Positions 4,516 through 52,114 of a DNA stretch of 64,000 nt are shown one piece after another. This DNA comes from Candidatus Micrarchaeota archaeon. Lineage in GTDB: Archaea; Micrarchaeota; Micrarchaeia; Norongarragalinales; SBBD01. Under the pieces are notes generated by a model. The model ran no database searches. It had not been told where the DNA came from and worked only from the letters and a program-made list of their open reading frames with translations. The position numbers and the translations under genes were made by a program. Location: the NCBI GenBank assembly GCA_018819225.1, contig JAHJQN010000008.1, positions 1 to 64,000 on the forward strand. Reading direction: 5' to 3'. The stretch's first letter is position 1; every line of letters begins with the position of its first letter.

Positions 4516-4649
4516 CGCCTTGGCCGGGAATCGAACCCGGGTCTAGGGCTGTTTGCCCGACCTCTTTTCTTTCTAGTCGAGTTCTTTCTTTTCCCAAAAG
4601 AAAGAAGTCGGTCGACAAGCCCCAATGCTAACCACTACACCACCAAGGC
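4516..4649 (-). tRNA. tRNA-Asp(GTC) with 62-nt canonical 37/38 intron (4551-4612)
   Basis: Acceptor stem GCCTTGG/CCAAGGC, T-arm CCGGGTTCGATTCCCGG, anticodon GTC at 4614-4616, BHB with TTGT/GCAA central helix and CCGAC/GTCGG helix. Confidence 0.95.
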
Positions 4650-4730
4650 ATTTGATGGGCGCTAAAAACGCGCTATTCCTTTGGCATGAAAGGAATAAAA
4701 AAGGGGAACCCAAGGCAAAAAAAAAGAAAG

Positions 4731-4869
4731 TCCCGCAGGCCGGATTTGAACCAGCAACCGTCTGATATCAATTTGGCGTACGCTTCGCCTAAAAAAAACG
4801 GCGTTTCCAAGCTACAGTTTCGTCCCTCTGAAAGAGGACAGACGCTCTGCCAAATTGAGCTACTGCGGG
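4731..4869 (-). tRNA. tRNA-Tyr(GTA) with two introns: 20 nt at 30/31 (4819-4838) and 45 nt at 37/38 (4767-4811)
   Basis: Acceptor stem CCCGCAG/CTGCGGG (C1-G72 as in archaeal Tyr). Removing both introns gives a 74-nt tRNA with TCTGA-CTGTAGA-TCAGA anticodon arm. Intron 1 has a CGTC/GACG BHB helix. Confidence 0.92.
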
Positions 4870-4957
4870 GCCCAATAATTAGAAAACTCAGCTTTTAAAG
4901 CAATTCCATCAAATTCAACGCTTCCAAACACCCGGACCGTAATGATTTAAACCCTTT

Positions 4958-6433
4958 ATGATTAATCATGCCATGAAATCCCACGTTAGGCTACTAATCG
5001 CGTGCGCCCTATTGATAGGAGTCCTCATGCCGGTCGCGGAAGCCGCCACCATCGAAAACAAGATCTCACAGTTTCGTTTAAAAAACGAAACCGCGGAATA
5101 CGCGGAAGTCACTTCCGGGGAAAAAGCGTATTATATTGTCAAGTTCGAAAGCGAACTCTCCCTCATCTTCGAAAAAGAGTCTTTGGAACTCGTCGAAGAC
5201 GATTTGGTGCTCCAACAAGTCATCTACGACTTCTTTGACAGCACGGGACAACTCGGATTCAGCGACGTGACCGCGCAAGAAATCAACAACTCGTTCTACG
5301 AAGCGTACCATTCCTACGGAATCTGCAGCGACCTATTTTATGAATATGTTGAAAATAATTTCTTCGTGCGCGACTACCAGTGCATTGAAACGAATACAGG
5401 AAAAGCGTGCGATATCGCGTTCTCTTACCGGGCCAACCTCACCGACCAATGGCGGGACTTGAAAACCGAAGTGGATAAGATTATTCCGCTGTCATTGGGA
5501 GGCGAAACCGATGAGATCACGCTCGTGCTGACATCAATTCGCGACCGCTCAAAAGCCATTGAAACGGACGTCTCGGGATTCGATAGTTATTACAGTTTCT
5601 TCCGAGGATACTTTTTAGCCGACGATCCCGAATGCGGCTATTCGGCCGCGCCCTTGAGGGCGACAAAAACGAAGGCTGAAAACAGCATAGAAGCAGGGAT
5701 TACGGACATCAAAGGAGAAGCCTCGCGAATCAAAAGCCTCTATGAATTGCGTAGAGATATTTCCGTCGTCAAAGACATTCAAGGCCGGGGAGATGCGGTC
5801 ATGGAGGAAGCGCAAACCTTCGCAAACGAAGTGGAAGAAATGTATCTAGTGGATGCGGTGCGCACGAAGATGGTGCGTCTGGATGACGCATTCGACGCGC
5901 TGCGCAATACCACGAACAAGGAGGATGCAGAAAATGCGTACGCGAACATGAACACGATCTTAACTGAAATGAAATCCTTCCTGGAAACGATCCGAAGCGA
6001 TTTAGAGGTATACAGCCAAGCGGCGGCCATCATGCAGAATGCGAGCACGTCCATCAGCCGAGCGAAAACCAAGTTTGGAAGCGGGGATTTGCGCGTCAAG
6101 GAAATGGAGACACAGTACTTGGATCTCGGACAACGCTTGGACAACGAACGAAGCGAGCTGGAAATCGGGAATCTGGCGAACCGTACGCAAAATCTGCAAA
6201 TCATTCGCGATGAAGCGCAAGCAATTGATGCGCGAGCGCGAACGCTGCCGGCTCCCGAAAGCGAAATCGACCCGCTCATTATTGCCACCGTCGTCGTCCT
6301 CGTACTCTCGATGCTGGGACTCATATACATTTTCCGCATCCGAAAGCCGCCCAAGGAAGTCGACATTAAGGAGTTGTATGCGAGAAGGGAAGAACAGCAC
6401 CGGGACGTCGTGATGCCTTCCACTAAAAAGTAA
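4958..6433 (+). CDS. Hypothetical secreted helical/coiled-coil protein with C-terminal membrane anchor
   Basis: Signal peptide, long helical acidic body, C-terminal TM 'LIIATVVVLVLSMLGLIYIF' followed by a basic tail. Confidence 0.7.
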   Translation: MINHAMKSHVRLLIACALLIGVLMPVAEAATIENKISQFRLKNETAEYAEVTSGEKAYYIVKFESELSLIFEKESLELVEDDLVLQQVIYDFFDSTGQLGFSDVTAQEINNSFYEAYHSYGICSDLFYEYVENNFFVRDYQCIETNTGKACDIAFSYRANLTDQWRDLKTEVDKIIPLSLGGETDEITLVLTSIRDRSKAIETDVSGFDSYYSFFRGYFLADDPECGYSAAPLRATKTKAENSIEAGITDIKGEASRIKSLYELRRDISVVKDIQGRGDAVMEEAQTFANEVEEMYLVDAVRTKMVRLDDAFDALRNTTNKEDAENAYANMNTILTEMKSFLETIRSDLEVYSQAAAIMQNASTSISRAKTKFGSGDLRVKEMETQYLDLGQRLDNERSELEIGNLANRTQNLQIIRDEAQAIDARARTLPAPESEIDPLIIATVVVLVLSMLGLIYIFRIRKPPKEVDIKELYARREEQHRDVVMPSTKK

Positions 6434-6549
6434 TGCATGCATTTATATTTTTTCATTCATTTTGTTTGGATAACGAAGTTCGTGGGTTCTTCGATCCGGA
6501 ACTTGTTCTGGCCGCGAAACAAATAGACTACCGAAGGTGATCTGGATAT

Positions 6550-7425
6550 ATGCATACGCCGGATGGATTCATTAGTAGCTGGATTTGCGTCTTACTTCTC
6601 ACGGTTTACGGAGGCGCGATAGGAATCGCATGGAAAGCCCGAAACGCGTGGTTAAATCAGCAAACCCTATCCAAAATGGCGTTTGCGGCCGCCGCCATAT
6701 TCCTACTTCAAATGCTTAACGTTCCCGTGGCAAGCGGTACCAGCGGACATTTCCTGGGCGCCGCGTTCGCCGTCCTGTTTCTCGGCCTTTATCCCGCCGT
6801 AATGGTGATGGGATTCGTGCTCCTCGTACAAACCCTCGTATTCGGGGACGGGGGATTTATTGCATACGGAGCCAACGCGTTCAACATGGCCATCGTGGCA
6901 ACGTATGCCGCGCACTACGCCCGCCAATGCAGTCAACACCTCCCGAAAACATTTTCTTATTCGTTAAGCGGAATTGCCAGCATGATCGCAGCTACCTTCG
7001 TGTTATCACTTGAACTCGCGGTCAGCGGGACGACTGCGCTTGCAAGCGTATTACCGGCGATGTGGGCAGTACATGCTTTCGCCGCGATCGGAGAAGCCGC
7101 GTTAACCATTGGACTCGTGTACGCGCTGTCCGGAACGTTCGCGCGCAGTCCCTGGAAAAGCGGGCTCGCGTTCTTCATAGCCGTGTTCGCGTTCTCCGCC
7201 ATCGCATTACCGTTTGCATCCGCATTACCGGACGGACTGCAAAGCGTATCCCTTCAATTGGGCTTTTTCTCGCAGGCAACAATCGTTTACCAAGCCCCGT
7301 TAAACGGATATTCAATGGCGGCACTTAATGGACTCGTTTCAACAGCAGGAATTGCCTTAATGGGAGCCACGCTTTGTTTCGCTGTATTCGGTGCATGGAA
7401 GTGGAGCGTTCCTTCAAAAGCTTGA
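6550..7425 (+). CDS. cbiM: ECF-type Ni/Co transporter substrate component (CbiM/NikMN)
   Basis: N-terminal 'MHTPDGF' motif, 'GTSGHFLGA', 'LLVQTLVFGDGG', and C-terminal 'LPDGLQ' (PDGLE-like) segment. Confidence 0.9.
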   Translation: MHTPDGFISSWICVLLLTVYGGAIGIAWKARNAWLNQQTLSKMAFAAAAIFLLQMLNVPVASGTSGHFLGAAFAVLFLGLYPAVMVMGFVLLVQTLVFGDGGFIAYGANAFNMAIVATYAAHYARQCSQHLPKTFSYSLSGIASMIAATFVLSLELAVSGTTALASVLPAMWAVHAFAAIGEAALTIGLVYALSGTFARSPWKSGLAFFIAVFAFSAIALPFASALPDGLQSVSLQLGFFSQATIVYQAPLNGYSMAALNGLVSTAGIALMGATLCFAVFGAWKWSVPSKA

Positions 7426-7427
7426 AT

Positions 7428-8219
7428 ATGGACAAAGTGATTGCCCTCAGAAAACAATTGCGGGAATTGAAGGGCGTACTCGTCGCGTACTCCGGTGGCG
7501 TGGATAGTACGTTCTTGTTATCCGAAGCCCGTAACGTGCTGGGAGAAAAAGTCATCGCGTGCACGAACGCAACGAGTTCCACGCCCAAACGACAACTCGA
7601 AATCGCTCAACGCATTACCCGGCAATTAGGCATAAGACACCGAATCATCCACGCGGAAGAACTGCAAGTGAAGGAATACGCGGCAAACCCCGCAAACCGT
7701 TGTTATTTCTGCAAGAATTCCCTGTACGCGAACTTGAAACGAATCGCACAAGAAGAAGGCATCCCCAACGTTCTCGATGGCACGAACGCGGATGACCTGA
7801 AGGAGTTCAGGCCGGGAAGAAAAGCAGCGGAAGAACACGGAATTAAAAGTCCGTTAGCAGAACTCGGATTTACAAAAAATGAAATTCGGGAGTACTCCAA
7901 GGAAAACGACTTACCGACTTGGAACATGCCGGCGTCCCCGTGCCTGGCGTCGAGAATTCAGCACGGTACCCCCATACAAAAAAATCAATTGATTGCGGTG
8001 GATGAAGCCGAGGAATTCATTCGATCGAAAGGGATGCCGATTGTTCGCGTGCGCATGCTCGGACACGAGGCGCGCATCGAGGTCCCGAAACAAGACGTCA
8101 AGAAAGTAATCGAACATCAATCCCACGTTAAGAAATTACTTGAAAAGATTGGAATCACCCGCGTATCAGTGAATCCGGAAGGCTATTGCTCCGGAAGCAT
8201 GAACGAGGCGCTGACATGA
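7428..8219 (+). CDS. larE: ATP-dependent sulfur transferase LarE
   Basis: PP-loop 'VAYSGGVDST', 'NRCYFCK', 'DGTNADD..RPG', 'PCLASRI'. Confidence 0.93.
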   Translation: MDKVIALRKQLRELKGVLVAYSGGVDSTFLLSEARNVLGEKVIACTNATSSTPKRQLEIAQRITRQLGIRHRIIHAEELQVKEYAANPANRCYFCKNSLYANLKRIAQEEGIPNVLDGTNADDLKEFRPGRKAAEEHGIKSPLAELGFTKNEIREYSKENDLPTWNMPASPCLASRIQHGTPIQKNQLIAVDEAEEFIRSKGMPIVRVRMLGHEARIEVPKQDVKKVIEHQSHVKKLLEKIGITRVSVNPEGYCSGSMNEALT

Positions 8220-8893
8220 ATAAAAAGAAAACGTTATTCGAAGAACTCGGATTCAGTAAAGTGGATCACGCGCGCACTAAAGTCAAAGGGTGGCCCGAAG
8301 TCATTTACTGTCCTGGAAAAACGCCGGCACAAATCACGGCCATCTCAAAAAGCCTGCTAAAGAAAGGAAGTAACGTCATAGCCACGCGCGCAAACCGGAA
8401 AGCGTATCAAGCCCTGAAGAACGCGAGCCCTCAAGCAAAATACGACAAGGAAGCACGCATCGCATTCATCCAGAAAATGAGACTACCTCGAAAAGGACGC
8501 GTCCTCGTGTTAAGCGCGGGCTCCTCCGACCAATCCGTGGCAAAAGAAGCCGTTCGAACCGCTGAGTTGCTGGGATGCAACGTGGAAAGCACGCAAGACG
8601 TGGGAATCGCGGGCATTCATCGGCTGTTATCAAAAATGGATCAGTTGAGGGAAGCCGATGTCGTCATCGTGGTGGCGGGCATGGACGGAGCACTCGCAAG
8701 CGCGGTTGCCGGACTCACCCCCAAGCCCGTGGTCGCCGTTCCCACCAGCGTAGGCTATGGAGCCAGCTTCAAGGGACTCGCAGCGTTATTAACCATGCTC
8801 AACGCCTGCGCACCCGGAGTCGCCGTCGTGAATATCGACAACGGATTCGGGGCCGGCTATTTTGCTGCCAGCATCATACGGGGAAAAACATGA
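8216..8893 (+). CDS. larB: Nickel-pincer cofactor biosynthesis protein LarB (PurE-like)
   Basis: 'PEVIYCPGKT', 'DVGIAGIHRL', 'AGMDGALAS', 'PTSVGYGASF', 'VVNIDNGFGA'. Confidence 0.95.
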   Translation: MNKKKTLFEELGFSKVDHARTKVKGWPEVIYCPGKTPAQITAISKSLLKKGSNVIATRANRKAYQALKNASPQAKYDKEARIAFIQKMRLPRKGRVLVLSAGSSDQSVAKEAVRTAELLGCNVESTQDVGIAGIHRLLSKMDQLREADVVIVVAGMDGALASAVAGLTPKPVVAVPTSVGYGASFKGLAALLTMLNACAPGVAVVNIDNGFGAGYFAASIIRGKT

Positions 8894-10011
8894 AAACCGT
8901 TTACTTGGATTGCGCGTCCGGAATCAGCGGGGACATGACTATCGCGGCTTTCTTGGACGCGCAACTCATCACGCCCAAATCATTACTCAACGAATTAAGA
9001 AAATTAAGATTGCCAGCCACTTACTCTTTAAAGAAAGTAAGAAAGAACGGTTTTCAAGCCACGCAGTTTCAAGTGAAAGAAAACAAGGGAAAACGCATAC
9101 CTGCAACGTATAGAGACATTAAGCAATTATTGGCGCGTTCTCACCTTGAGAAAGCCACGAAACGAAACGCGGACGCGATATTGCTCGCACTCGGAAAAGC
9201 GGAGGCAACCGCGCACGGAATTTCAATTGAAAGCGTTCATTTTCACGAAGTAGGAGCGGTTGACTCGATAGCGGACATTGTAGGTGCCGCGCACTGCTTT
9301 GCGAGCGCTAAGGCGACCATCTATTGCTCGCGCGTGAACGTGGGAGGAGGCATGACGCGCATTCAACACGGGTCCATGAACGTCCCGGCTCCCGCCACCG
9401 CGGAATTATTGAAAAGCTTTGAATGCTATTCGCACGGAAACCACGAGCTGACGACTCCCACTGGAGCCGCCATCCTTCACGCGTTAACGCAACAAGCGGT
9501 CATGCCGCCCATGAAATTACTTAAGACAGGGAAAGGGGCCGGAACGCTGACTTGGGAAGAACCCAACCTGCTACGCGTTTACTACGGAGAGGTAAGGAAC
9601 CAATGGCTGGAGGATAGTGTGCTCGTCATCGAGGCTAGCGTGGACGATATGAATCCCGAATACTTGCCGCTCTCCATGGAAAAATTGATGAAGGCAGGCG
9701 CATTGGACGCGTTCGTACAACCCATTGGAATGAAGAAAGGGAGAATGGGGATCAAGTTGACGGCATTATGCGCACTGGAATCCCGAGAAAAAGTCATGGA
9801 AGCGTTCTTTCGAAACACCACGACTATTGGTTTACGATACTATGTTGCGCAACGCGGAAAACTGTATCGGAGAAAAGAAGACATAGGTATAGGAGGCGGC
9901 AAACTGAAAGGAAAACGGAGCTGGATGTTCGGGGAAGAAGGAAACGTGAAGCCCGAGTACAACGAAGTGAAAAAGCAATTGAATAAAAAGAGGCCCGATG
10001 TACGCAAATAA
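8890..10011 (+). CDS. larC: Nickel insertase LarC
   Basis: 'DCASGISGDM', 'VHFHEVGAVDSIADIVG', 'VPAPATAELL', 'ELTTPTGAA', 'MKKGRMG', 'TTTIGLR'. ATGA overlap with larB. Confidence 0.95.
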   Translation: MKTVYLDCASGISGDMTIAAFLDAQLITPKSLLNELRKLRLPATYSLKKVRKNGFQATQFQVKENKGKRIPATYRDIKQLLARSHLEKATKRNADAILLALGKAEATAHGISIESVHFHEVGAVDSIADIVGAAHCFASAKATIYCSRVNVGGGMTRIQHGSMNVPAPATAELLKSFECYSHGNHELTTPTGAAILHALTQQAVMPPMKLLKTGKGAGTLTWEEPNLLRVYYGEVRNQWLEDSVLVIEASVDDMNPEYLPLSMEKLMKAGALDAFVQPIGMKKGRMGIKLTALCALESREKVMEAFFRNTTTIGLRYYVAQRGKLYRRKEDIGIGGGKLKGKRSWMFGEEGNVKPEYNEVKKQLNKKRPDVRK

Positions 10012-10022
10012 GGAGGGAAAGC

Positions 10023-10301
10023 ATGGCATCGCTTCGGAAACTAGAGAAAGAGGTTGAAGCGCTCAAGAAACGAAACGAGCGAGTGGAAACCGACAAGGGA
10101 TGGGAAACGAGCTTCTCGAGACGAGTCCTACTCATCCTATTTACGTATATTGCGATCGGCATTTACTTGGAAGCCATCGCGGTAAAGGACGCGTGGGTAC
10201 ACGCAATAGTGCCTGCCGTCGCGTTCATGCTCTCCACGCTCTCGCTGCCCTTCTTCAAGAGAGTATGGATTAAGTACAAGACCAAGGAATACGACGATTA
10301 A
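10023..10301 (+). CDS. Small hypothetical membrane protein
   Basis: GGAGG SD, basic N-terminus 'KRNERVETDKGWETS', two TM helices. Confidence 0.7.
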   Translation: MASLRKLEKEVEALKKRNERVETDKGWETSFSRRVLLILFTYIAIGIYLEAIAVKDAWVHAIVPAVAFMLSTLSLPFFKRVWIKYKTKEYDD

Positions 10302-10328
10302 GAAGTACGGCAACCATTTAGTCTTAAA

Positions 10329-11039
10329 TTATTTCGATCGCCTGAAGAATGCGCGCATCTTTTTCTCTTGAACTGGATCCAATCCCGAAACCAATCCGCG
10401 AACGTCCGATTGTTGTTCTCGTGAAATCAAGTACTTCCGAGTGGAGGCGTCGGGAGCGAATCGCTCTGCGTTCGCGACGTGAGCCGCACCCAAAATGGAA
10501 ACGTGCAATCGGCAAGTCAAGGTATCATTCAGCAAGTTGGCTGCTTTTTGGGCGGCTCGGACTTGGTATTGACGCCAAATAGCTGCTCGATCCGTCGGAT
10601 CCGTTGCTTGTTCATGTTTGATCTGCAGCAATCCAAGCGCCTCGTTATCCTGATGACGCATAATAGGTAATACGTGTGCCCCTTTATTCAACAAGGCATC
10701 AATAACGCGGAGAAAGAATCGGTGGTCCGGGGAAGCACGGCTCAATTGTCCAATTTCGTTCAAACGATTTCGAAAGATAAGCGAGTATCTCTCTGGATCC
10801 GTATTTTGTAAACGTTTAATCTCGGGAAGTTCTTCTTTGCGAAAAAGATGAGTAGACGGGGGCAGATCCAATCCGACTCGCATTCCGGGCTCAACGTTCG
10901 AATCAATCCAATGAAGCGTTCTGTCCAGGCTGTAGCTGCTGCGGTCGTGGTGGAGAACCCCCAACAAGATCGGCTGCTCAATCTTTTCCCCGCGATGAGG
11001 GTGAACCATTCTTTCAATGGCTTTCTTGCGGGAAGGCAT
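10329..11039 (-). CDS. Hypothetical protein, possibly TraB/EreA/ChaN superfamily fold
   Basis: Motif order 'LLGVLHH' ... 'VGLDLP' ... 'ILGAAHV' resembles that superfamily. Family call is weak. Confidence 0.45.
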   Translation of the reverse strand: MPSRKKAIERMVHPHRGEKIEQPILLGVLHHDRSSYSLDRTLHWIDSNVEPGMRVGLDLPPSTHLFRKEELPEIKRLQNTDPERYSLIFRNRLNEIGQLSRASPDHRFFLRVIDALLNKGAHVLPIMRHQDNEALGLLQIKHEQATDPTDRAAIWRQYQVRAAQKAANLLNDTLTCRLHVSILGAAHVANAERFAPDASTRKYLISREQQSDVRGLVSGLDPVQEKKMRAFFRRSK

Positions 11040-11144
11040 AAGACGATCAACCGGGGTATTGGAAGAAGTACAGGAAGCTCCGGACATTTAAATATTTCGA
11101 CTACAGTGTTAGGCACCGAAGGTGAGTACACCAAACGAAATCGC

Positions 11145-11417
11145 CTAAGCTAGGATCCCCAATAATAGAAGAACGCCTGCGAAAAATCCAAAGGTTACTA
11201 TTCCCTCAATCGAAGCCCAGTATTGCTTCAGGAAATACCCCATTCCAACGAATAAAGCAGTGACCTCCAACCCACCCAACATTTCACTTCCCCTCAAGAA
11301 GCTCAGTAGCCCTTCACCGGGAAGTCCCAACTGAGTCAGAACCATGAACATGACTAATAACATGATCATCCAATCCAAGAATCCTGTTCCGGTTCCAATA
11401 CGGGTTGACCCGCTCAT
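11145..11417 (-). CDS. Small membrane protein
   Basis: Three hydrophobic segments. Lies 1 bp after the upstream small membrane ORF. Confidence 0.6.
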   Translation of the reverse strand: MSGSTRIGTGTGFLDWMIMLLVMFMVLTQLGLPGEGLLSFLRGSEMLGGLEVTALFVGMGYFLKQYWASIEGIVTFGFFAGVLLLLGILA

Positions 11418-11418
11418 G

Positions 11419-11646
11419 TTAACTCACCAACGCAATAACTCCAAAGAACCATAAAGCAATCCATGCCTCCCGCACTTGGCTCCATACGGCGGGTATGACC
11501 AACGATATCGCGAAAAAACTTGCCAATCGCGCATGGGTCAACACGTGAACGATGCCTCCAATCATTGAAATATTTCCCGCGTATGAGAAAAGGATTCCCA
11601 TTAGGAAGAGGACGACGACGGCGATCTCAACGGCAGTATCCATCAT
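11419..11646 (-). CDS. Small membrane protein
   Basis: Three hydrophobic segments, divergent from trmB. Confidence 0.6.
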   Translation of the reverse strand: MMDTAVEIAVVVLFLMGILFSYAGNISMIGGIVHVLTHARLASFFAISLVIPAVWSQVREAWIALWFFGVIALVS

Positions 11647-11692
11647 GTTTCAGCTCTGAATACTTAACACCAATGACATTCAAATAGACTAC

Positions 11693-11710
11693 TGTCCCCC
11701 TAGGGGGTCA
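11693..11710. promoter_or_regulatory. Palindromic putative operator (core CCCCCTAGGGGG) in the divergent promoter upstream of the TrmB regulator
   Basis: Perfect 12-bp palindrome at 11696-11707, just upstream of TATA-like TTTTATATA (~11721-11729). Confidence 0.45.
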
Positions 11711-11750
11711 TAATAGAACATTTTATATAGGATATGGAAGAAAGCATACC

Positions 11751-14707: not shown

Positions 14708-14729
14708 TGCAGGGGAAGGGATTTCGAAC
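14708..14729 (-). repeat. Degenerate direct copy of the tRNA-Leu 3' end (att-like)
   Basis: TGCAGGGGAAGGGATTTCGAAC versus tRNA TGCAGGGAGAGGGATTTGAAC (14811-14831). Confidence 0.6.
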
Positions 14730-14808
14730 GACCTTTCTTGGGAAGGAAACTCGACCAAAGAATGAATGATGAGCGACTTTTTGATCGACCTTTTTTGAAA
14801 AAGGTCGG
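14729..14808. repeat. Two oppositely oriented copies of a tRNA-associated hairpin element
   Basis: 14729-14761 (reverse) and 14778-14808 (TTTTTGATCGACCTTTTTTGAAAAAGGTCGG). A near-identical copy lies at 51930-51958. Confidence 0.65.
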
Positions 14809-14810
14809 AG

Positions 14811-14895
14811 TGCAGGGAGAGGGATTTGAACCCCCGAACCCCTAAGGGACAGGGTCCTAAACCCTGCGCATTTGACCATGCTCTGCCACCCCTGC
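14811..14895 (-). tRNA. tRNA-Leu(TAG)
   Basis: 85 nt. Acceptor GCAGGGG/TCCCTGC, anticodon arm CAGGG-TTTAGGA-CCCTG, long variable arm, T-loop GGTTCAAATCC. Confidence 0.95.
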
Positions 14896-35515: not shown

Positions 35516-35529
35516 AGCCTCCGGCGGGA
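35516..35529. repeat. 14-bp direct repeat AGCCTCCGGCGGGA (left copy)
   Basis: Identical copy at 37412-37425. The pair flanks an AT-rich gene. Confidence 0.7.
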
Positions 35530-37411: not shown

Positions 37412-37425
37412 AGCCTCCGGCGGGA
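37412..37425. repeat. 14-bp direct repeat AGCCTCCGGCGGGA (right copy), tRNA 3'-end-like
   Basis: Extended reverse complement GGTACGATTCCCGCCGGAGGCT resembles a T-loop plus acceptor 3' strand. Confidence 0.7.
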
Positions 37426-37569
37426 ATCGTACCTTAGCATAACCGCACGATATAACAAGCAACCGGAGGATACTCTAAAAGGGAAAAAGAATAAGGAAAA
37501 GAGTAATGGTGATAATAAAAAGACGGAGGGAAAAATAAGAAAAGAAGAAAAAAAAGAAAAAAAGAGAGC

Positions 37570-42642: not shown

Positions 42643-45090
42643 ATGCACCACACGGCATTCCTACTGGATGTCAACTACGTCATGAAAGAGCAGCGCAGCA
42701 TGCTCCGGCTTCTCCTGAAAGACGAGAAAACCCAGAAAACCATTCGGGCATACGATGCGGATTACGCCCCCTACTTTTACTTGCACGCGAACGCCGAAAA
42801 AGAAACCGAAACAAAATTGGTGGAAGAACTCAAGCGGTTGAAGGTATACGGTCGCGAAGGCGAAGCGAAAATCATGGACGTGAAAATGGAAGAACGCCTG
42901 CTCCTCGGGAAAAAAACGAGGCTCTTGCGCATCACGTGCCAACACCCGTCACACGTACCCAAGCTGCGAGAAGAAGTCAAACGCTTCGGAACCACGTACG
43001 AGGACGCGATCCAATTCACGAAACGGTACATGATAGATAAAAAATTGTATCCGTGCCAGCTCGTCCAATTAAACGTGAATGAAAAAAAGGAGGCGACGGA
43101 ACTCGCGCCCCAAGAAACACCCGCCAATACCACGATGCCCATCGAAGTCACGGCGTTCGATATTGAAACGTATAATCCGCAGGGCATGCCAAGACCGGAA
43201 GTGGATCCGTGCCTCATGATCGGGTACGCGGACAAAACAGGCAGCCAATTGCTCACGTACTCCAAACCCATTGCCGTACCGAATGTGCACAATTACGGTA
43301 GCGAAAAAGACATGCTGGAAGCCTTTTCCAAACTGCTTAAACTAAAGAAAGCGGATCTCGTGTGCACGTATAATGGAGACTCGTTCGACTTACCGTACTT
43401 GAGAGAACGCGCAAAAAAAACGCATGCCGTCATGCACCTGGGACGGGATACCTCCCCCCCGAACAGTCGCCAAACGGGCTTGCGCGTGCGCACCTCGCTC
43501 ATCGGAAGAATTCATTTCGACGTCTTTCCCGTGGTTTCACTGCTCAGTTACATCGGCGCCTACAAAATGCAGCGCCTGACCCTCAAAGCCGTTTACAAGG
43601 AAATACTGGGAGGCAAAAAAGAAGATATCGAGAAATACGAGATCTGGAAAACATGGGATCAGGGAACCGAAGAAGAAATGAAGCACTTGTTCAAGTACTG
43701 CCGCGTCGACGCGGAAGCCGCGTACCAGCTCGCGGACCACCTGCTCCCCTTGGAGATTGAATTGTCGCGAATCACCGGAAACACGTTGTTTGAAACCGCG
43801 CGGGCCACTCCCGGACAACTCGTTGAATCCCTGCTCATGCGAAGAGCATTCGAAGGCGGCGAAATCATATTGAACAAGCCCGATTACGAAGAAGTCAAAC
43901 AACGCTCCGAGAATCCGGTGGAAGGCGCGTTCGTCCAATTGCCTTCCCCAGGCATCTACGACCACATCGCCGTACTGGACTTCCGGTCGCTGTATCCCAG
44001 CATCATCATCTCGCACAACATCGATCCCTCCACCATTAACTGCAGTTGCTGCACGGAAAAAGAAGCGTATCTATCGCCGAAAGGCCACCGGTTCTGCAAA
44101 AAACGAAAAGGCCTGATCCCGAAAACGCTTCAGCACGTCCTCGAAGCACGAATCGCCATCAAACAGCAAATGAAAACGCTCAAAAAAGAAGGAAAAACCG
44201 ATTCCACATTATTTAAGCAATTGGATGCACGACAAACCGCGCTCAAGATTCTGGCGAATAGCACGTACGGCTACTTGTTGTATGCGCGCTCACGATATTA
44301 CTCGCGCGAATGCGGGGAAAGCGTGACCGCATGGGGCCGCCATTACGTACAAGAAACTTTGAAAAAAGCCGGCGAAGCCGGATTGAAACCGTTGTACGCC
44401 GATACCGATAGTGCCTTTCTGCTCTACGGAAAACCGGAGAATGAAAATAAAGTCACGGCATTCCAAAAGCGCATCAACGCCGAACTGCCTGAAAGCATGG
44501 AACTCGAACTCGAAGACATTTACCCCAGAGGCATATTCGTCAGCAAAAAACAAGAGGAAAAAGGCGCGAAAAAGAAGTACGCCCTCATCAACCGCGAAGG
44601 AAAAATCAAGATCAGGGGCTTCGAACTCGTGCGAAGGGACTGGAGCCGCATCGCGAAAGAAACGCAGCGAGAAGTGATTCAGATATTGCTCGGGGAAGGA
44701 GACGTGGAGAAAGCGCGCCAAATCGTGCGCGAAGTCGTGGAGCGCCTGAAAGAAGGCAAGGTGCCCCTCGAAGAACTCGCGATTTACACGCAATTGAAAA
44801 AGAAAGCGAAAAGTTACGAAATCATGTCCCCGGAAGTCAGCGCGTTTCTGAAAGCGCAGAAAGCCGGCGTACGCATGGATGAGAAAAGCGTGATCGCGTA
44901 CGTGATTACCAAGAAAGGAAAAAGCATTTCCGACCGAGCGGAAATTCTGGAGAGAGCCAAAGACTACGACCCCGAGTATTACATTAACAATCAAGTGCTT
45001 CCCGCCGTATTGCGCATCATGGGCGCCATGGGCTTCGAGAAAGAAGACTTGAAAACCAAGGGGAGACAGAAAAGCCTGGGAGACTGGTAG
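42643..45090 (+). CDS. polB: Family B DNA polymerase
   Basis: Exonuclease 'FDIETY', 'YNGDSFD', polymerase 'DFRSLYPSII', 'KILANSTYGY', 'YADTDS', 'KKYA'. No intein. Confidence 0.97.
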   Translation: MHHTAFLLDVNYVMKEQRSMLRLLLKDEKTQKTIRAYDADYAPYFYLHANAEKETETKLVEELKRLKVYGREGEAKIMDVKMEERLLLGKKTRLLRITCQHPSHVPKLREEVKRFGTTYEDAIQFTKRYMIDKKLYPCQLVQLNVNEKKEATELAPQETPANTTMPIEVTAFDIETYNPQGMPRPEVDPCLMIGYADKTGSQLLTYSKPIAVPNVHNYGSEKDMLEAFSKLLKLKKADLVCTYNGDSFDLPYLRERAKKTHAVMHLGRDTSPPNSRQTGLRVRTSLIGRIHFDVFPVVSLLSYIGAYKMQRLTLKAVYKEILGGKKEDIEKYEIWKTWDQGTEEEMKHLFKYCRVDAEAAYQLADHLLPLEIELSRITGNTLFETARATPGQLVESLLMRRAFEGGEIILNKPDYEEVKQRSENPVEGAFVQLPSPGIYDHIAVLDFRSLYPSIIISHNIDPSTINCSCCTEKEAYLSPKGHRFCKKRKGLIPKTLQHVLEARIAIKQQMKTLKKEGKTDSTLFKQLDARQTALKILANSTYGYLLYARSRYYSRECGESVTAWGRHYVQETLKKAGEAGLKPLYADTDSAFLLYGKPENENKVTAFQKRINAELPESMELELEDIYPRGIFVSKKQEEKGAKKKYALINREGKIKIRGFELVRRDWSRIAKETQREVIQILLGEGDVEKARQIVREVVERLKEGKVPLEELAIYTQLKKKAKSYEIMSPEVSAFLKAQKAGVRMDEKSVIAYVITKKGKSISDRAEILERAKDYDPEYYINNQVLPAVLRIMGAMGFEKEDLKTKGRQKSLGDW

Positions 45091-45204
45091 TCGAAAGGAT
45101 CATGCATCAACCAGAAAACCATCGTCTGACCTTTTTTAATGACCGGAACGTTGAATACCGAAAGACTAAAAGGGAGACTATGCGTGAGCCTTTGGGGGTA
45201 AACC

Positions 45205-45849
45205 GTGACGCGACTCGCAGTCTTTGATTTGGATAGCACGCTCATACACGAGGAAATGATCAATGAGTTTGCGAGCGTCGCAGGGAAGCGTAAAACCATT
45301 GAACGCATGACGAGAAACGCGAACCTTCGGGCCGAACAGAAAGAAGCGTTGAAGAAACGCGTACGGTTATTGAAAGGAGCGCGCGTCGAAGACATCAAGG
45401 CGAAAGCCCGATCCTTGCGGTTTCGAAAGCATTTCCCCGAAATGGTGCAGTGGTTTGAATCCAGGGGATTCCGAATGGCGCTGATAACCGGTGCGTTCTG
45501 GATGGGCATTCAAGAACTCAAGCGAAAGCACAAGGAACTGGAACACTTCGATTACATTGAATGCAATCACTTGCAGATCCGTCAAGGAAAGTTGACTGGA
45601 AAAGTGCTATCCAATGTTTCGGGAAACAAGGAAAAACTCCTCTTGAAACTCCAGAAGAAAACGGGCGCCACGAAACAAAATACGCTCGTTATGGGAGACA
45701 GCATGTCCGACGCGCGAATGTTCAAGCATGCGAAAATAGGGATCGCTTTCCAGCCCGCGAATCCGCGAGTAAAAAAAGCGGCCTCCCACGTCATTGAAAG
45801 CGGGGACCTCCTCGACGTAATAAAAATCGCGGAGAAAGAATACGCATGA
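45205..45849 (+). CDS. serB: HAD phosphoserine phosphatase (SerB-like)
   Basis: 'FDLDSTLIHEE', 'LITGAF', 'MGDSMSD'. Confidence 0.8.
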   Translation: MTRLAVFDLDSTLIHEEMINEFASVAGKRKTIERMTRNANLRAEQKEALKKRVRLLKGARVEDIKAKARSLRFRKHFPEMVQWFESRGFRMALITGAFWMGIQELKRKHKELEHFDYIECNHLQIRQGKLTGKVLSNVSGNKEKLLLKLQKKTGATKQNTLVMGDSMSDARMFKHAKIGIAFQPANPRVKKAASHVIESGDLLDVIKIAEKEYA

Positions 45850-45927
45850 AAAAATCGTTCGATTACGCGAAGGGGTCGGCTATACATTAAGTAAATGGAA
45901 CGGACGAGTCGAATAAGGTGGGAAAGA

Positions 45928-46185
45928 TCACGCCAGGTTCCGGCGGTCCACGACCATGACATCCTTCACGTCTAGAACGGACGCGTACGGAATCGTGACG
46001 AGTCCGCCGCCTTCCTTCTTCGCCTTGACCGCCAACGCCGAATCCGGATTGGGTTCCACGAGAACGCCTTCCAACTTGCCGGTGAGCTCGTTGACAAACA
46101 AGTCGACCACGCGGCCCAACTCCTCCCCATCCGTGGTAATCACGCGTTTTCCAGCCAGTTGCTTAGCAATAGCATATTTGACCAT
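45928..46185 (-). CDS. PRC-barrel protein (CdpB-like)
   Basis: 'LAGKRVITTDGEELGRVVDL...TGKL...IPYASVLDVKDVMVV'. GGTGA SD. Confidence 0.88.
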   Translation of the reverse strand: MVKYAIAKQLAGKRVITTDGEELGRVVDLFVNELTGKLEGVLVEPNPDSALAVKAKKEGGGLVTIPYASVLDVKDVMVVDRRNLA

Positions 46186-46266
46186 GCGAATGTCACCCAA
46201 AAAACGATCCCTTTCGAGACTATTGAACTCGTTTGATTTAAATAGCTTTCGTTCTCTCGAGCCATC

Positions 46267-49200
46267 TCATTCGTTCAACTTAACTTCCACTAGCTTCGAT
46301 CCCTGACGGGTCATCGCCACTCCAATCAACGCCTCCGCATGCTGGTACACGGAAGGATTATGCGTGACCACAATGAATTGCGTCGTCTTACTGAGCTGAA
46401 TAAGCAGCTCGGCCAGCTTAAGCGAGTTTTGCTGGTCTAACGCGGCGTCCGCCTCATCCAATACATAGATGCTGGAAGGCGAATAACTTTGAATCGCGAA
46501 CAAGAATAAAACCGCAATCAAGGATTTCTCTCCGCCGGACATGAGCTCCAAATACTTAACGGACTTGCCCTCCAACTGCGCCTTAATCGTCAACCCCCCC
46601 TCGAACGGGTTGGAAGGGGTTTCCAAGACCAACGAGCCTTCACCCCTGAAAATCTGGGAAAAGAGTTTCCGGAAGGATTCGTTCACGTGATTGAATGATC
46701 GCATAAACGTCGCGATCTTCTTGCCTTCAATCTCCTGAATCATCGTAATAACCGCTTGCTTCTCATTCGAAAGCTGCCGTATCTTGTCCTGCTGTCGATC
46801 CAAGTCCTTCGCGCGCTCCTCGTACTCCTCCACCGCCTTCAAGTTCACGTTCCCTAAACCGCTCAACTCCTCCTCCGCTTTGTAACTTAAGAGCGTCAAC
46901 TTCGCCTTATCCTCCATTTTGAGCAGCTCCGTATCCTTGTACGGCTCGAATTCTGCCTTCAAATTCGAAAGATTCGTTTCCGAAACCGCCTTACCCACTT
47001 CCTTCTTCTGCAAATCCCCTGCAATCTTCTCGCGCTCGAACTCCAACTTTCCCTTCTGGTTCGCCAAATTGTATACCTTGCCCTCCAATTTCTCGCGCTC
47101 GCTCACCAAATCCTCCATCGCCGAAGACATCCCTTTCAGTTCCTGCGTCTTCTCCTTCAACAACTTTTGGTCCCTCGAAAGCGTTTCCTTGCACTCCTTC
47201 ATGACGCGCTTCGCTTCCCCTTCCTGCAGTTCCAACTCCTTCTCCGCCTTCGCAATCCCATCGTGCTCGCGCGAGTACGCCTTCAATTGAGCGGCCAAGC
47301 TGTCAAACTGATTCTTGTAATCACTCAACGAAAGCCGCAAATCGGAAACCTTTTTCTCCTTCTCCTTCAGCGAGACCCCGAATTTCTGCTCTTTTTCAAC
47401 ATCGATCTTGCCCTTGACCTCCAGCGATCTAATATTCAAATCCGAGAGCGAGCGAATCAAATCCGAACGCTCTTCCTCAATTTTTGCAGAACGCTCCTGA
47501 GATATATTGACTTCCTTCTTGAGCTCCGCCGCGGCCGCACGCACATTCTTGAACTTCTCCTCCTCCACATCCTGCGAATTCTTCAAATTCTGGATTTCAA
47601 GCTCGCACGCCTTCAACTGCACTTCCGCCTCCGCCTTTTTCTTCCGTGCTGACGACATGTCCTCCTGAATCGAGTACAAACGCTTTAACAAATCATCCTT
47701 GGTCTGTTTTGCTTTCTTCCAACGCGCGTCCCACTCGTCCAACTGCTCCTTCTCCTTCTTCACGTTAATGCGAGCTGAAAACGAGCCGCCCGTAATCAAT
47801 GCCGACTGCTCCACCAACTCCCCGTCCTCCGTCACCAAACGGGCTTTCCCCACCAACGTGGCCGCCTCACTCAGCCCTTTCACGAGCAACGTATTCTGGC
47901 AAACAAACTGAAACGCTTTCTGAAACCGGGTCTCGAACTCCAACAAGTGAACCAGAAAGTCAACGGCCGCCGGATGATCTTTCAACCTCAATTCATCGGG
48001 CTTGAACGCATGAGGACGGATGCGGTCCAACGGAATAAACGAGACGCGCCCCAACTTCCGCATCTTCAACTGACGCACCATCTTCTCCGCCGTATGAATG
48101 TTATTGACGACCAAGAAATTCAAGCGACCACCCAAAGCCACCTGCACGGGAACCGAATACATCGAATCGTATTGGCACAATTGCTCCACGGTACCGAAAA
48201 TGCCGGGGGTTTTCTCCTTCTGGCTCAACACGTACTCCACGCCTTGCGAAAGCTGGATTTCACGCAAGTTCTGCAAGCGCGTGGAAATCTCCACCGTCTT
48301 GATTTTAGCGGCAGTGGTCTCACTCTCCGCCAAAGAAAGCGCGCCATTCAAACGCTTTTCTTCCGCAAACAGCTTGCTCGCTACGTCATCCGCTTCCCTG
48401 ACTTTCTGCGTCCACTCCTTCAACCGCTTACTCGCGGAAGCCTGAGCGTCCTTGTGATCATTCCATTTTCCGCCCAACAAGCGATGCAACTCGCCTTCCT
48501 TCAGCCTCATCACTTCCGAAAGAGTTTTCTCCTCCGCCTGCAACTCGTTCAAATGCTCTTTCGCGGACATCATTTGCTGTTGAAGCTGTTCATACAATTT
48601 GCGTGCATCAAAGAACTGCGAAGAAAACTGCGTGCTCGCCTCCAAGACCTCATTCAACTTGCGTTGCTCTTCCTTCAACAACGTCTCAACGGCTTTCAAT
48701 TCGCGTTCCACATCCGAGGCGCGCGCACGAATGCCCTTCACTTCATCGCCCGCGCGCACGCGCTCCAACTTCAACTCCTTGGCCTTGCCCGTCAAACGCT
48801 CGAGCTCCGACTCCTTCTCTTTCGTCAGCGTCCGGCAACGCTCCATCTCCGCCTTCAATTCATCGGACTCTTTCTCCAACACCAATTGCTTTCCTTCACT
48901 GCGCTCCGAAATGCGTTTATTCACATCGTCTTTCTGCTTCTGAATCGCATCAATCTGATCCTGTAGATCGTTCGCCTTCCGATGCAACTGCTCGATCTTG
49001 GACGTTAAGTCCAGAACCGTATTCACCGAGTTCTCGAACTCCACTTCCAATTCGCGCAAATTCAAGTAAAGCAACGTCGCCTTCATCTGGTCGACTTCCT
49101 TCTTCAAACCCAGATAGCGCTCCGCATCCACCTTATCCTTCTTCAATTGATCCAGAAAACCCGCTTTTTCACCCAATTTCGCGGAATTCTCGCGAATCTT

Positions 49201-49716
49201 CTCATCCACGTGATCCAACTCCGAAAGAGCTTCCTTCTTCTTCTGCTCGTACTCGAGCACGTTCGCGATATTGTCAATCAAGGCCCGCCGATCCTTCGAA
49301 CTCATCTCGACAATGCGCTGCACTTCCCCTTGTTGAATGATATTGTACGTGCTGATCTGGTTCGCACGCAAGAAATCCTCGATCACGTAACGATGAGAGC
49401 GCTTGCCATTCATCGCATACTTCATTTTCCCGTCCCGGCGCAACGCCCGAGAAATCCACGTGCGCTCCTTCTCTTTTTCATTGCGGAGTTCCAGCTTCGC
49501 CTCCGCAATACGCGCGTCCTTATAGATCAAGTCAGGCGTCTTTTTTGCGCGCAACGAACGAATACGGCTTTCTCCCAAAGAGAATAGAAGAGCGTCCACA
49601 ATATTGGTTTTACCGCTTCCATTCGGGCCCACGATGGCATTAAACCCTTTGACGAAGCGTAAGTCGCACTCACGGAACGACTTGAAGTTTTTGAGACTCA
49701 GTTTTTCGACGAACAT
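46267..49716 (-). CDS. smc: Chromosome segregation protein SMC
   Basis: Walker A 'GPNGSGKTN', coiled coils, hinge '[21 protein letters not shown]', 'MSGGEKS', 'LDEADAALD'. Confidence 0.97.
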
Positions 49717-49854
49717 GCGAATCCGGGAATAGAAACGAATGCGCTTAAGTACGAATGCAGCTTTTATAAACGATATGGAGGGAATGTCGACGCCGGGAAA
49801 TGCCCGTACGCTGAGACGAAGGCTTAAAAAATAACGAAACCCTCAAAAGCGTTC

Positions 49855-50859
49855 ATGATATTGGACGCGCCCACGTACAAGCTCGTGCTCACCCCCGAAG
49901 CCGCCATGGGCATCGTGCAGAAAGAGCTCGCGAGAAGGGGCTGGAGAAAATTCGAAATCGAGAACGTGCGCCTCGTGTACACGCCCTATTACACGTTCAG
50001 TTTTGACGTCAGCGCGGAAACCGCGGGCCCCATAACGGGCAAGGCGGCCTTGAACGCGTATACTGGAGACGTGGACGAGTTCGTACCCATGCTCCTCGAA
50101 CGCCCGCTAGACAAGCTCAAGAAAGCAGAAGACAATGCGGAAATCGAGGAAACCAGCGTTCCGAAAATTGAGGCAAAAGGAGCGGCACGCGACAAAATTG
50201 CAGTGCAAACAGCCGTAAAACGGGACCGCGTATCCGTATCCGCCATCAACAAAGTGTACATTCCGTATTACCGCATTTGGGTGAACCTGCCCACGCAACA
50301 ACTCCGCGCGCAAGTGGACGCGCTCGTTGGAAGCGTGGTGGGCCTGGAAGGCGTGCACGCAAAACCGAAAACGTTCGGGGAAAGCGCTCGCGACACCGTC
50401 AAAAAACTGGCGTCGCCGTCCGGAATCGCGGAGCTCGGAGGCAAGGCCGTGGGATCCATCGCAGGAGGAAAAGGCGGAGGCAGCAGCGGAAGCCCTTTTG
50501 AACGAAAAGAATTTCGTTGGGCCGGAATCGGACTCGTCATACTCGTTTTGTTGTACTTGACCACGATGCAGGGATCGCCGGACGCGGATTGTTCCGGAAC
50601 CATTACGCAAGTGGGCATGGAGTGCAAGCTGGAAGGCGAGTGCGGGTTCAATAACCCTAAAGCCGAGCAAGACTACGTGACGGCTCACATCACCATTTAC
50701 CAGAAAGGCATCGAACGCCCGGAATACGGAAGCATCGTCGGATTGCTCGTGGATTCCAAAGGAAAACCGGATGCGTGGAGGAAAACCTTTGAAGTGACGT
50801 GGGAATCCGAGGGACTCGATTGCGAAAAAGACTTCTCGTGGAAAGCCGGAAAAATCTAA
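49855..50859 (+). CDS. Hypothetical single-pass membrane protein
   Basis: Internally duplicated 'LVYTPYY..A..NAYTG' / 'KVYIPYY..VDALVG' domain, one TM helix, Cys-containing outer domain. Confidence 0.7.
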   Translation: MILDAPTYKLVLTPEAAMGIVQKELARRGWRKFEIENVRLVYTPYYTFSFDVSAETAGPITGKAALNAYTGDVDEFVPMLLERPLDKLKKAEDNAEIEETSVPKIEAKGAARDKIAVQTAVKRDRVSVSAINKVYIPYYRIWVNLPTQQLRAQVDALVGSVVGLEGVHAKPKTFGESARDTVKKLASPSGIAELGGKAVGSIAGGKGGGSSGSPFERKEFRWAGIGLVILVLLYLTTMQGSPDADCSGTITQVGMECKLEGECGFNNPKAEQDYVTAHITIYQKGIERPEYGSIVGLLVDSKGKPDAWRKTFEVTWESEGLDCEKDFSWKAGKI

Positions 50860-51032
50860 AGCGGTTCACCGGAAATCAGCCGCCCCGAACTTGTTATTAG
50901 CGAGTTCTGATTTCGCAAGGAATAGGGAAGAAAAGCCTTTCAAGCAAGCATGCGGGGTACCGACCCAAAGGAGGCTATCCTAAAAAAAACGGCTCCGCCG
51001 ATGCGGAAAGCGCTTTTTCTCTCCCGGCTTTT

Positions 51033-51905
51033 TTATTTAAACTTCATGTAAAAAGCGAGCAAGGAAACGAACGAGGCCTGCAAAACAATGCTGACTACCG
51101 CAGGCAAGCTGGCGAGGGGAGTAAAGAGCGCTAATGCGAAATAGAGAGCTAAACCGTTATTGCGAATGACGCTAAACAAATAAAGACTGGTTCGCTCTCG
51201 TCGATCCCAATGCGCCCATCTAGCATAAGCAACTGCTAATAGAAATGGAATGAGTATTCGAACCGCCATTAGCAGAGAGATGAATAAGATGAGCGAGGTT
51301 TGTCCAAGTAGTTCACCTTGGTTCGCGGAAATCGCGGCGTAAATGATGATGAAGAACGAGGAGACCACGAGACCGCGGCGAGGTGTTTTATCGAAACGCA
51401 TCCATCGAGAGAGCACGAACGGAACAAAAACGAATAAGGCCATGATTTCCACAATGTGAAGCAAATCAACCGAAGTGGAAAGAAAAACCGCTAGCAATAG
51501 AGGAACAATCGCAATGGCAAGTAAATGACCTAATGCGACTCCAAAAAAAGAAGAACGGACATCTCCTTTCAATAAAAAGGAGACTCCAATCACTGCAATT
51601 CCAGGAGGAACTGCAGCCACCAGAAGAAAACCGTTGAATAAATCGCCTTCCAAAAAAAGAAAAGCAAGTACAATAGCAATTAAGGTAGATAAAACGTAAC
51701 TGAAGAACAGAAAAATCAGCGTGATTCGTTTCTTCGCGCGAGCTACTTGTAAATCAAAGGAGTAATCTTTCAAGGAAAAGGTGAACGCCACGAGAAGTGC
51801 TGGGAGAACCAAGAGGTTCGCGATTTCGGAGTAGTGAGGGTAAATGAATCCCGTAGAGAGGGCGATTAAATAAATAAGAGCAGTTGAGCCCGCGCGGAAT
51901 TCCAT
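51033..51905 (-). CDS. Bile acid:Na+ symporter/Acr3-like transporter
   Basis: About 10 TM helices, 'AAVPPG', 'LKGDV', 'RNNGLA'. Confidence 0.8.
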   Translation of the reverse strand: MEFRAGSTALIYLIALSTGFIYPHYSEIANLLVLPALLVAFTFSLKDYSFDLQVARAKKRITLIFLFFSYVLSTLIAIVLAFLFLEGDLFNGFLLVAAVPPGIAVIGVSFLLKGDVRSSFFGVALGHLLAIAIVPLLLAVFLSTSVDLLHIVEIMALFVFVPFVLSRWMRFDKTPRRGLVVSSFFIIIYAAISANQGELLGQTSLILFISLLMAVRILIPFLLAVAYARWAHWDRRERTSLYLFSVIRNNGLALYFALALFTPLASLPAVVSIVLQASFVSLLAFYMKFK

Positions 51906-51929
51906 TCACTATTCCTTAATAAACACGAG

Positions 51930-51958
51930 TTTTGATCGACCTTTTTGAAAAGGTCGGA
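51930..51958. repeat. tRNA-associated hairpin element (TTTTGATCGACCTTTTTGAAAAGGTCGGA)
   Basis: Nearly identical to 14779-14809 and abuts the tRNA-Val 3' end. Confidence 0.7.
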
Positions 51959-51959
51959 A

Positions 51960-52114
51960 TGGGCCCGCGGAGAATCGAACTCCGGATCTTCAGTGTTTTC
52001 CCGGACGATAGTCCACGCAGACAAAAGCGTTTCTTTTTCTGGTGGAGCTCTTTTTCTTTACAAAGAAAAAGAGGTCCAGTGAGACTGACGTCTTAACCAC
52101 TCGACTACGGGCCC
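51960..52114 (-). tRNA. tRNA-Val(CAC) with 82-nt intron at 36/37 (51997-52078)
   Basis: Acceptor GGGCCCG/CGGGCCC, T-arm CGGAGTTCGATTCTCCG. Splicing gives a 73-nt tRNA with TCAGT-CTCACAC-ACTGA. BHB helices TCTC/GGGA and GGAC/GTCC. Confidence 0.92.

Follow-up and report, generated by a model that had tools for sequence, protein, structure and literature searches.

Small hairpins lie in and beside the tRNA genes of a Candidatus Micrarchaeota archaeon, and we read them as copies of one family of protein-free DNA modules, distributed across the Micrarchaeota, which would be mobile or recombinogenic and would survive where RNA processing removes them; we give this reading a probability of roughly 55%. 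The hairpins were predicted from a stretch of 64,000 nucleotides (hereafter the window, C7:1-64000), and we have followed the prediction through the source genome (G000; 1.37 Mb in 8 contigs, labelled C1, C2 and so on, 50% GC, 90% complete) and its relatives (labelled from G001). The original prediction is partly supported, in that the element is a tRNA-linked repeat, gained and lost between relatives, in sequence that is processed out of RNA, and is not a substrate of an HUH transposase. The prediction lacked the mirror purine tail, the duplicated gene ends, and the copies at rRNA genes and upstream of tRNA genes, all of which we describe here.

Architecture and covariation of the module

Read on the strand that is sense in introns, each unit runs from a 3-bp foot with one C-C mismatch through a pyrimidine arm, a short loop and a purine arm to the partner strand of the foot, a 3-5-nt linker and a purine tail. 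With the foot partner counted in, the linker to the tail measures 7-9 nt overall, the arms measure 5-16 nt and the whole module 35-55 nt. The foot occurs as CGA/TCG, GGA/TCC, TGA/TCA, AAG/CTT, GAG/CTC and GAA/TTC. Kept pairing between variant feet (CGA/TCG versus GGA/TCC) and a shared mismatch had been claimed from the window, and both are real: in 40 distinct copies from the source genome and its relatives, 99% of cells are paired, compensatory changes are seen at nine of ten pairs, and double-change cells number 70 as against 17 in shuffles and at most 7 with the partners slid, in an alignment that was fitted to the covariance model and so favours pairing. Only about 3 of 387 cells hold a G-U pair, a scarcity that would be expected if pairing has to be kept in both strands or in the DNA.

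The tail is a mirror of the purine arm, that is, its reverse and not its complement, with an offset of one base. The arm AAGAAAG is accompanied by the tail AAAGAA, AAAGAAG by AAGAAA, and AAAAGAG by AGAAAA, and in the Asp, Val, Lys and Leu introns, where the arms are 10-16 nt long, the tail follows the arm likewise. Among 33 elements picked by their foot alone, the mirror match was better than the direct-repeat match in 27, tied in 6 and was never worse; for the 20 distinct arms among the model matches there were 11 wins, 9 ties and no losses, with a perfect mirror in 15 of the 20. Perfect mirrors number 31, whereas shuffles of the tail window contain 1.5 on average and never more than 4, and the relation is kept in relatives that use other feet and linkers, even across a linker of about 60 nt. 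The signal is clear only when elements are picked by the foot and read on the C-mismatch strand; a sign test of mirror against direct match over every pyrimidine/purine hairpin strand in the data, most of which are tail-less, is not significant (p 0.28). We also considered that the tail might be a direct repeat in a 'minor-groove code' for a DNA-binding protein, a reading that leaves the strictly all-purine composition of the tail unexplained.

The succession of a pyrimidine tract, its antiparallel purine complement and a mirror purine tract is the layout of a class II intrastrand triplex, and the patterns of arm and tail vary between copies and genera yet stay matched, as in triple covariation. 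Based on this five-part layout, either single strand could fold back into a three-stranded helix, the opposite strand reading as the matching pyrimidine-motif layout. One possibility would be that such a helix forms in RNA, as U-A-U triples on the pyrimidine-headed strand (the one transcribed downstream of tRNAs), and that it protects or marks the leader, the trailer or the circular intron RNA, like the ENE/MALAT1-type helices beside a tRNA-like structure. The parallel match of the head to the purine arm, which U-A-U and C+-G-C triples require, and the constant orientation relative to transcription would suit this proposal; the intron copies would not, being oppositely oriented; in that orientation a purine-motif triplex made of RNA only would, from general triplex chemistry, hardly be stable. 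Furthermore, a tail that loops back to the splice site, as a bulge-helix-bulge (BHB) precursor needs, could not at the same time take part in a triplex, transcription would end at the T-runs before it reached the downstream hairpin, and G-U pairs are almost absent. We consider an RNA triple helix very unlikely. The scarcity of G-U pairs, together with the looping back of the tail to the 3' splice site in the BHB, suggests instead a constraint on DNA, or on both strands, and not on the intron RNA.

Copies in stable-RNA genes of the source genome and its relatives

The source genome, scanned by regular expression, nhmmer and covariance model, holds at least 35-45 copies of the family. The covariance model was built from nine copies of equal length; a MAFFT alignment of 23 length-variable copies misplaced the arms and was not used for it. 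At E <= 1 the model gives 34 matches genome-wide, and 23 of the 26 that lie outside a tandem array are in, or within 200 nt of, a stable RNA gene, where 1.9% would be expected by chance (P ~1e-36). Two of the three exceptions flank relics of tRNA-Leu 3' ends and the third is a decayed copy between protein genes. This enrichment indicates that the element is not a general terminator, and random intergenic terminators, which might have been matched equally often, are not. The predicted dispersed repeat family is thereby confirmed as one tied to stable-RNA genes. The narrower claim, that copies are seen only at tRNA loci, holds inside the window, where none of the three scans returned a further copy, and fails genome-wide, given a 16S rRNA intron, the flank of a 5S gene, the array and the decayed copy.

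Copies form the core of seven tRNA introns (in Asp, Val, Thr, Leu-TAA, Lys and Leu-CAA genes) and of a mini-intron of about 56 nt that breaks a conserved 16S rRNA stretch inside the Rfam small-subunit rRNA (SSU) match. Leu, Val, Ile and Pro tRNA genes have trailer copies directly downstream of their 3' ends; upstream copies, whose loops are TATA-like, precede three tRNA-Thr genes, tRNA-Leu-CAA and tRNA-Gly; antisense copies adjoin a displaced copy of a gene end; and further copies follow the 5S rRNA gene. The array, of at least seven 47-nt units (C1:268173-268309 and C6:1-165), has the 3' end of an amidohydrolase gene on one side and the start of the PCNA gene on the other, and breaks the assembly at the C1/C6 junction. 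Relative to the RNA gene, every one of the 7 intron copies of the source genome is in sense orientation, and so are at least 14 in relatives. The element lies, as had been predicted, in sequence removed by splicing or end-trimming.

Other features of the rRNA genes were also noted. At the 3' end of the 16S rRNA gene there is a near-threshold Rfam match to a group I intron (C3:98335-99104; 48.3 bits versus 50), and the 23S gene is longer than expected (3732 nt versus 2987 in the model).

Could the module simply serve its host? It could act in expression, as a portable promoter or terminator, or within introns, as a hairpin that prevents misfolding of the pre-tRNA; it would then be spread by gene duplication and gene conversion between tRNA genes and would not be selfish. 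Such a role would fit the TATA-like loops of upstream copies about 40 nt before the mature 5' end, the T-runs that downstream copies place right past the 3' end, the subtypes that follow tRNA families and the invariably sense orientation of intron copies, but it gives no promoter or terminator function to the mirror tail and does not account for decayed copies, for copies beside useless displaced gene fragments or for a tandem array away from RNA genes. Many tRNA genes, and the orthologs of relatives, also work without the element. We regard a purely host-serving module as unlikely, while keeping it in view.

The element has been gained or lost between relatives, as the original prediction proposed. 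The tRNA-Asp gene bears it in the source genome, G002, G003, G005-G007 and G009, is intronless in G001, G020, G023, G034 and G040, and has an unrelated intron in G035 and G039. For tRNA-Val(CAC), the element is present in the source genome, G002 and G003, and the gene is intronless in G001 and G024; the trailer copy that follows this gene in the source genome has no counterpart behind the G002 ortholog. One subtype, almost uniform in its tracts, occurs in the tRNA-Asp intron at 37/38 (source genome, G002), in the anticodon loops of tRNA-His (G024), tRNA-Gly (G030) and tRNA-Leu-CAA (G008), in the D-loop of a tRNA-Leu (G012) and in the T-loop of a Trp-like tRNA (G028). This single subtype spans five tRNA types, six gene contexts and three intron positions. 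Presence and absence between relatives, together with the same subtype in the non-homologous Asp, His, Gly, Leu and Trp genes, make plausible a link with tRNA intron gain, for which the prediction had proposed a route. Across the phylum, a sequence-specific model matches 23 of 151 sampled genomes, which is a lower bound, mostly in anticodon-loop and T-loop introns or in tRNA flanks.

Within the window, all five predicted hairpins were found, and three of the four tRNA genes, all on the minus strand, bear copies (Table 1). The Asp and Val introns are intervening sequence by comparison with their intronless orthologs, as archaeal introns should be. Drawn by hand, the Asp intron fits a canonical BHB, with a 4-bp helix that includes one G-T pair, 3-nt bulges and a 5-bp outer helix; only a relaxed form fits the Val intron, and relaxed motifs are reported to be tolerated by Micrarchaeota EndA (PMC3239211). 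Copies begin close to RNA processing sites, as claimed: the foot starts at intron nucleotide 3 (Asp) or 1 (Val), and trailers 2-3 nt past the discriminator base. The tail equals the reversed purine arm at 10 of 10 positions in the Asp copy and 11 of 11 in the Val copy. Four of the five copies fold as single strands far better than dinucleotide shuffles (z -2.9 to -5.8: Asp intron -2.9/-5.1 for the two strands, Val intron -4.3/-5.8, Val trailer -4.6, Leu trailer -5.2), with a tool that counts Watson-Crick pairs only, so that the z values do not model a triplex; the copy that had been described as inverted (14727-14762) is degenerate, with z about 0. The tRNA-Val trailer unit recurs twice elsewhere in the genome, after tRNA-Val(GAC), and its T-run is likely a terminator.

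Table 1. Positions of host tRNA genes, element copies and their parts in the window
Feature	Position	Strand	Basis or remark
tRNA-Asp(GTC)	4516-4649	(-)	Rfam tRNA match; ARAGORN with introns
tRNA-Asp intron, 62 nt	4551-4612	(-)	at positions 37/38; junction set by the intronless orthologs listed in the text
Copy 1, in Asp intron, sense	4562-4610	(-)	sequence; covariance-model match
Copy 1, foot	4607-4610
Copy 1, pyrimidine arm	4596-4606
Copy 1, loop	4593-4595
Copy 1, purine arm	4582-4592
Copy 1, foot/linker	4575-4581
Copy 1, mirror purine tail	4562-4574
Displaced imperfect tRNA-Leu segment, T-loop to 3' end	14708-14728	(-)	last 15 nt identical to 3' end of the G003 ortholog
Short-type copy, antisense to tRNA-Leu	14727-14762	(+)	arms decayed; best-class covariance-model match, 58.7 bits
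Trailer-type copy after tRNA-Leu	14775-14809	(-)	begins 2-3 nt past 3' end; covariance-model match, E 0.01
tRNA-Leu(TAG), intronless	14811-14895	(-)	Rfam
Trailer-type copy after tRNA-Val	51928-51958	(-)	perfect T/A-run hairpin and A-run tail; begins 2 nt past 3' end
tRNA-Val(CAC)	51960-52114	(-)	span from ARAGORN with introns (anticodon miscalled); identity from orthologs
tRNA-Val intron, 82 nt	51997-52078	(-)	junction from orthologs: intronless ones listed in the text; same intron in G002
Copy 2, in Val intron, sense	52030-52078	(-)	sequence
Copy 2, foot	52075-52078
Copy 2, pyrimidine arm	52062-52073
Copy 2, loop	52060-52061
Copy 2, purine arm	52048-52059
Copy 2, foot/linker	52041-52047
Copy 2, mirror tail	52030-52040

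The fourth tRNA gene of the window (4731-4869, minus strand; Rfam 45.7 bits) is a second intron-bearing gene beside tRNA-Asp; it has no copy of the family, its intron of about 67 nt carries a run of eight T and a different hairpin, and it was missed by ARAGORN in bacterial mode. Two intron-bearing tRNA genes elsewhere (C3:46440-46620 and C6:172440-172556, both minus strand) were reported by neither ARAGORN nor Rfam, and one of them, a tRNA-Leu gene, has its intron in the T-loop; fewer tRNA genes have been called in this genome than it contains. Upstream of tRNA-Val (window 52154-52200) there is also a separate G/C-rich repeat, which recurs at C2:201144, at C2:242902 and after C6:106805, has dozens of copies in G001-G005 and, in tRNA-Leu genes of G002, also occurs in the trailer and within an intron of the T-loop.

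Duplicated gene ends and the search for an enzyme

Duplicated gene ends, located by blastn-short, accompany copies on both sides of RNA genes. Downstream, the order is intact gene, 0-100-nt spacer, antisense element and a second copy of the gene's end, and this is found at Trp, Arg, two Glu-type, Ser-type, Leu-TAG, Leu-CAG, Val-GAC, Pro and 5S genes. The duplicated tRNA 3' end runs from the T-loop to the discriminator base, often with the T-run terminator after it. The tRNA-Leu locus of the window, where the hairpin end of the antisense copy adjoins the displaced 3' fragment, shares its geometry with about 11 other genes. Upstream, a copy of tRNA positions 1 to about 26 is followed by a sense element, a spacer and the intact gene, at Thr-CGT, Thr-GGT (twice in tandem) and Leu-CAA. 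Polarity is constant in every case, the hairpin side abutting the displaced fragment and the tail side facing the intact gene. The 3' end of the G003 ortholog is matched better by the displaced Leu-TAG fragment than by the gene adjacent to this fragment, and the fragment from C3:108357 onward comes from a different tRNA altogether, so fragments can be foreign or old. The end duplications are compatible with recombination within conserved tRNA loops and also with small cassettes that bring a replacement gene end.

A different proposal, that intact gene, module and displaced end are spliced as an intron, was tried and rejected: the junctions are identical and not complementary, and no BHB is evident. 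Elsewhere in the window, two copies of the tRNA-Thr(GGT) 3' end (35516-35529, 14/14 identical; 37412-37427, 16/16 identical; both minus strand) lie 1.9 kb apart and far from any tRNA-Thr gene, and the motif before the first also precedes a similar fragment at C2:334842. On sequence grounds these copies look like att-type relics that bound a cassette.

The duplicated ends raise the possibility that the copies are collapsed relics of integration at tRNA genes. A tyrosine recombinase acting in trans would then have moved mini integrative cassettes, with the hairpins as their arm or recognition sites and the duplicated ends as attL and attR. The genome has a single tyrosine-recombinase gene (C2:97226-98146, 306 aa), in an element of about 2 kb (C2:96102-98253) that has tRNA-Ser(CGA) at one end and 13 nt repeated from the 3' end of this tRNA gene at the other; a 16-nt copy of the tRNA-Ser(TGA) 3' end lies 50 nt beyond. 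An integrase-like gene so placed speaks for this proposal, as do direct repeats that begin in the T-loop and stop precisely at the 3' end, a pattern known from integrative elements that target tRNA genes, and intron gain by such an element has been proposed (Sugahara et al., 2012; PMC3293823). Nevertheless, neither end of the 2-kb element carries a family hairpin, the recombinase resembles archaeal XerA only weakly (55 bits versus a cut-off of 220), units of 40-90 bp are too small for double-stranded circles, the inserts hold no genes and the intron copies have no flanking repeats. Duplicated 5' ends and a 5S rRNA target would also be unusual for integrases of this kind. We find it rather improbable that integrase-driven integration explains the family.

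Still less does the genome favour the earlier suggestion that the hairpins are substrates, of REP (repetitive extragenic palindrome) or PATE type, of an HUH Y1 transposase such as RAYT or the TnpA of IS200/IS605. Dispersed non-coding copies of an imperfect, mismatched hairpin whose short foot is conserved do recall such substrates. However, the foot covaries and is not a fixed tetranucleotide, Y1 transposases do not make long gene-end duplications, and a mirror tail is foreign to such ends. In the 90%-complete genome there was no match to Y1_Tnp (PF01797) or TnpB (PF07282), both of which were detected in control genomes, and no reverse transcriptase. In the light of these absences, the HUH proposal is unsupported, and we hold it to be extremely improbable. 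The prediction of a REP- or MITE-like repeat (MITE, miniature inverted-repeat transposable element) stands as far as a dispersed repeat at stable-RNA genes is concerned; it does not stand for the class, since the flanking repeats are gene ends of variable length (11-27 nt), no parent transposon was seen and the genome has no Y1 gene. A Cas1 gene is also present, and no link between it and the elements was made. If an enzyme moves the module, it would presumably be something other than a Y1 transposase.

A proposed protein-free module and its place among known repeats

In the explanation that we favour, a family of protein-free modules, a triplex would be of purine motif on the strand with the tail and of pyrimidine motif on the other, and the module as duplex DNA could form a cruciform or H-DNA. 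Modules would enter stable-RNA genes at breaks, in the D-loop or D-arm, the anticodon loop, the T-loop or the gene ends. Copies would survive only where the cell strips them from RNA, in BHB introns, 5' leaders and 3' trailers. At gene ends, the T-runs of a module may then end the transcription of the rebuilt gene, and its AT-rich loop may provide a TATA box. Movement would take place at the level of DNA. More tentatively, such a triplex-coded module may itself be what brings introns into archaeal tRNA and rRNA genes. In heavily transcribed stable-RNA genes, the non-B structure of the module would induce breaks or template switches. The module would insert copies of itself into the loops and ends of these genes with no enzymes other than those of host repair, at times duplicating a gene end, and would become established as an intron wherever the splicing endonuclease is able to excise it.

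Several observations weigh against the favoured explanation. The strict sense orientation in introns suggests a constraint at the RNA level, which a purely DNA-level model leaves unexplained. The 90%-complete genome yielded no enzyme identified as moving the module. Subtypes track tRNA families (Val-type, Leu-type and Thr-type flanks), so that duplication or conversion of genes, and not transposition, could account for some of the spread. The comparison of filled and empty genes is one between genera. The tail of the trailer type, an A-run beside pure T/A runs, is uninformative on mirror versus direct repeat. Finally, a purine-motif triplex rich in A/T is held together less strongly than the G-rich triplexes of bacteria.

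Bacteria offer the closest structural parallel, in PIT elements, BoxC and TMECO; for TMECO, whose tracts are laid out in the same way, triplex formation has been demonstrated in vitro, and its copies mark loci that vary (Holder et al., 2015; PMC4666352). The order of tracts is alike (pyrimidine stem, loop, purine stem, loop, mirroring second purine stem), and those repeats too are multi-copy and non-coding, have no linked transposase, often occur as inverted pairs and lie at variable loci. The differences are clear as well: the bacterial repeats are G/C-rich, with fixed 9-nt stems, a near-invariant sequence and a purely intergenic location, whereas the Micrarchaeota element is A/T-rich, has covarying arms of 5-16 nt and an extra foot helix with a mismatch, and lies in archaeal tRNA and rRNA introns and at gene ends that are duplicated. 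Compared with MITEs and REP/REPIN elements, it is likewise a small, structured, non-autonomous repeat, and its composite units of trailer plus antisense copy have inverted terminal units, but it has no fixed short target duplication and no cognate transposase was found, and its structure is conserved over its sequence.

Introns have been seen to spread before. Transposed BHB tRNA introns in Thermoproteales imply spread at the DNA level without a known mechanism (Fujishima et al., 2010, as recounted in PMC4090602), and the subtype in six gene contexts repeats this pattern of intron transposition in another phylum. The Micrarchaeota unit differs in being found also outside introns (leaders, trailers, the 5S flank and a tandem array), in its defined three-tract architecture and in the duplicated gene ends alongside. 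The tRNA-disruption model of Sugahara et al. (2012; PMC3293823) likewise has a displaced tRNA end beside inserted DNA and ties insertion to intron gain; the Micrarchaeota inserts differ in carrying no recombinase, in their 40-90 nt and in hitting 5' ends and 5S rRNA as well. The kind of structure, in bacteria, and the spread of introns, in Thermoproteales, are therefore already published. We found no paper on such an element in archaea, nor on this combination with end duplications in Micrarchaeota.

How archaeal tRNA introns arrive is an open question, and for the tRNA introns of Asgard archaea a census of 2026 revealed no general route (10.64898/2026.10.13.758758). The element described here offers a concrete, testable candidate for the moving part, since one unit is caught in several states, as introns at several positions, as a 16S intron, and as leaders and trailers beside duplicated ends, and since orthologs with and without it are available. 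Our results also extend to archaea the intrastrand-triplex repeats that were known only as bacterial intergenic curiosities, and the covariation between arms and tail would add evolutionary support for a three-stranded fold.

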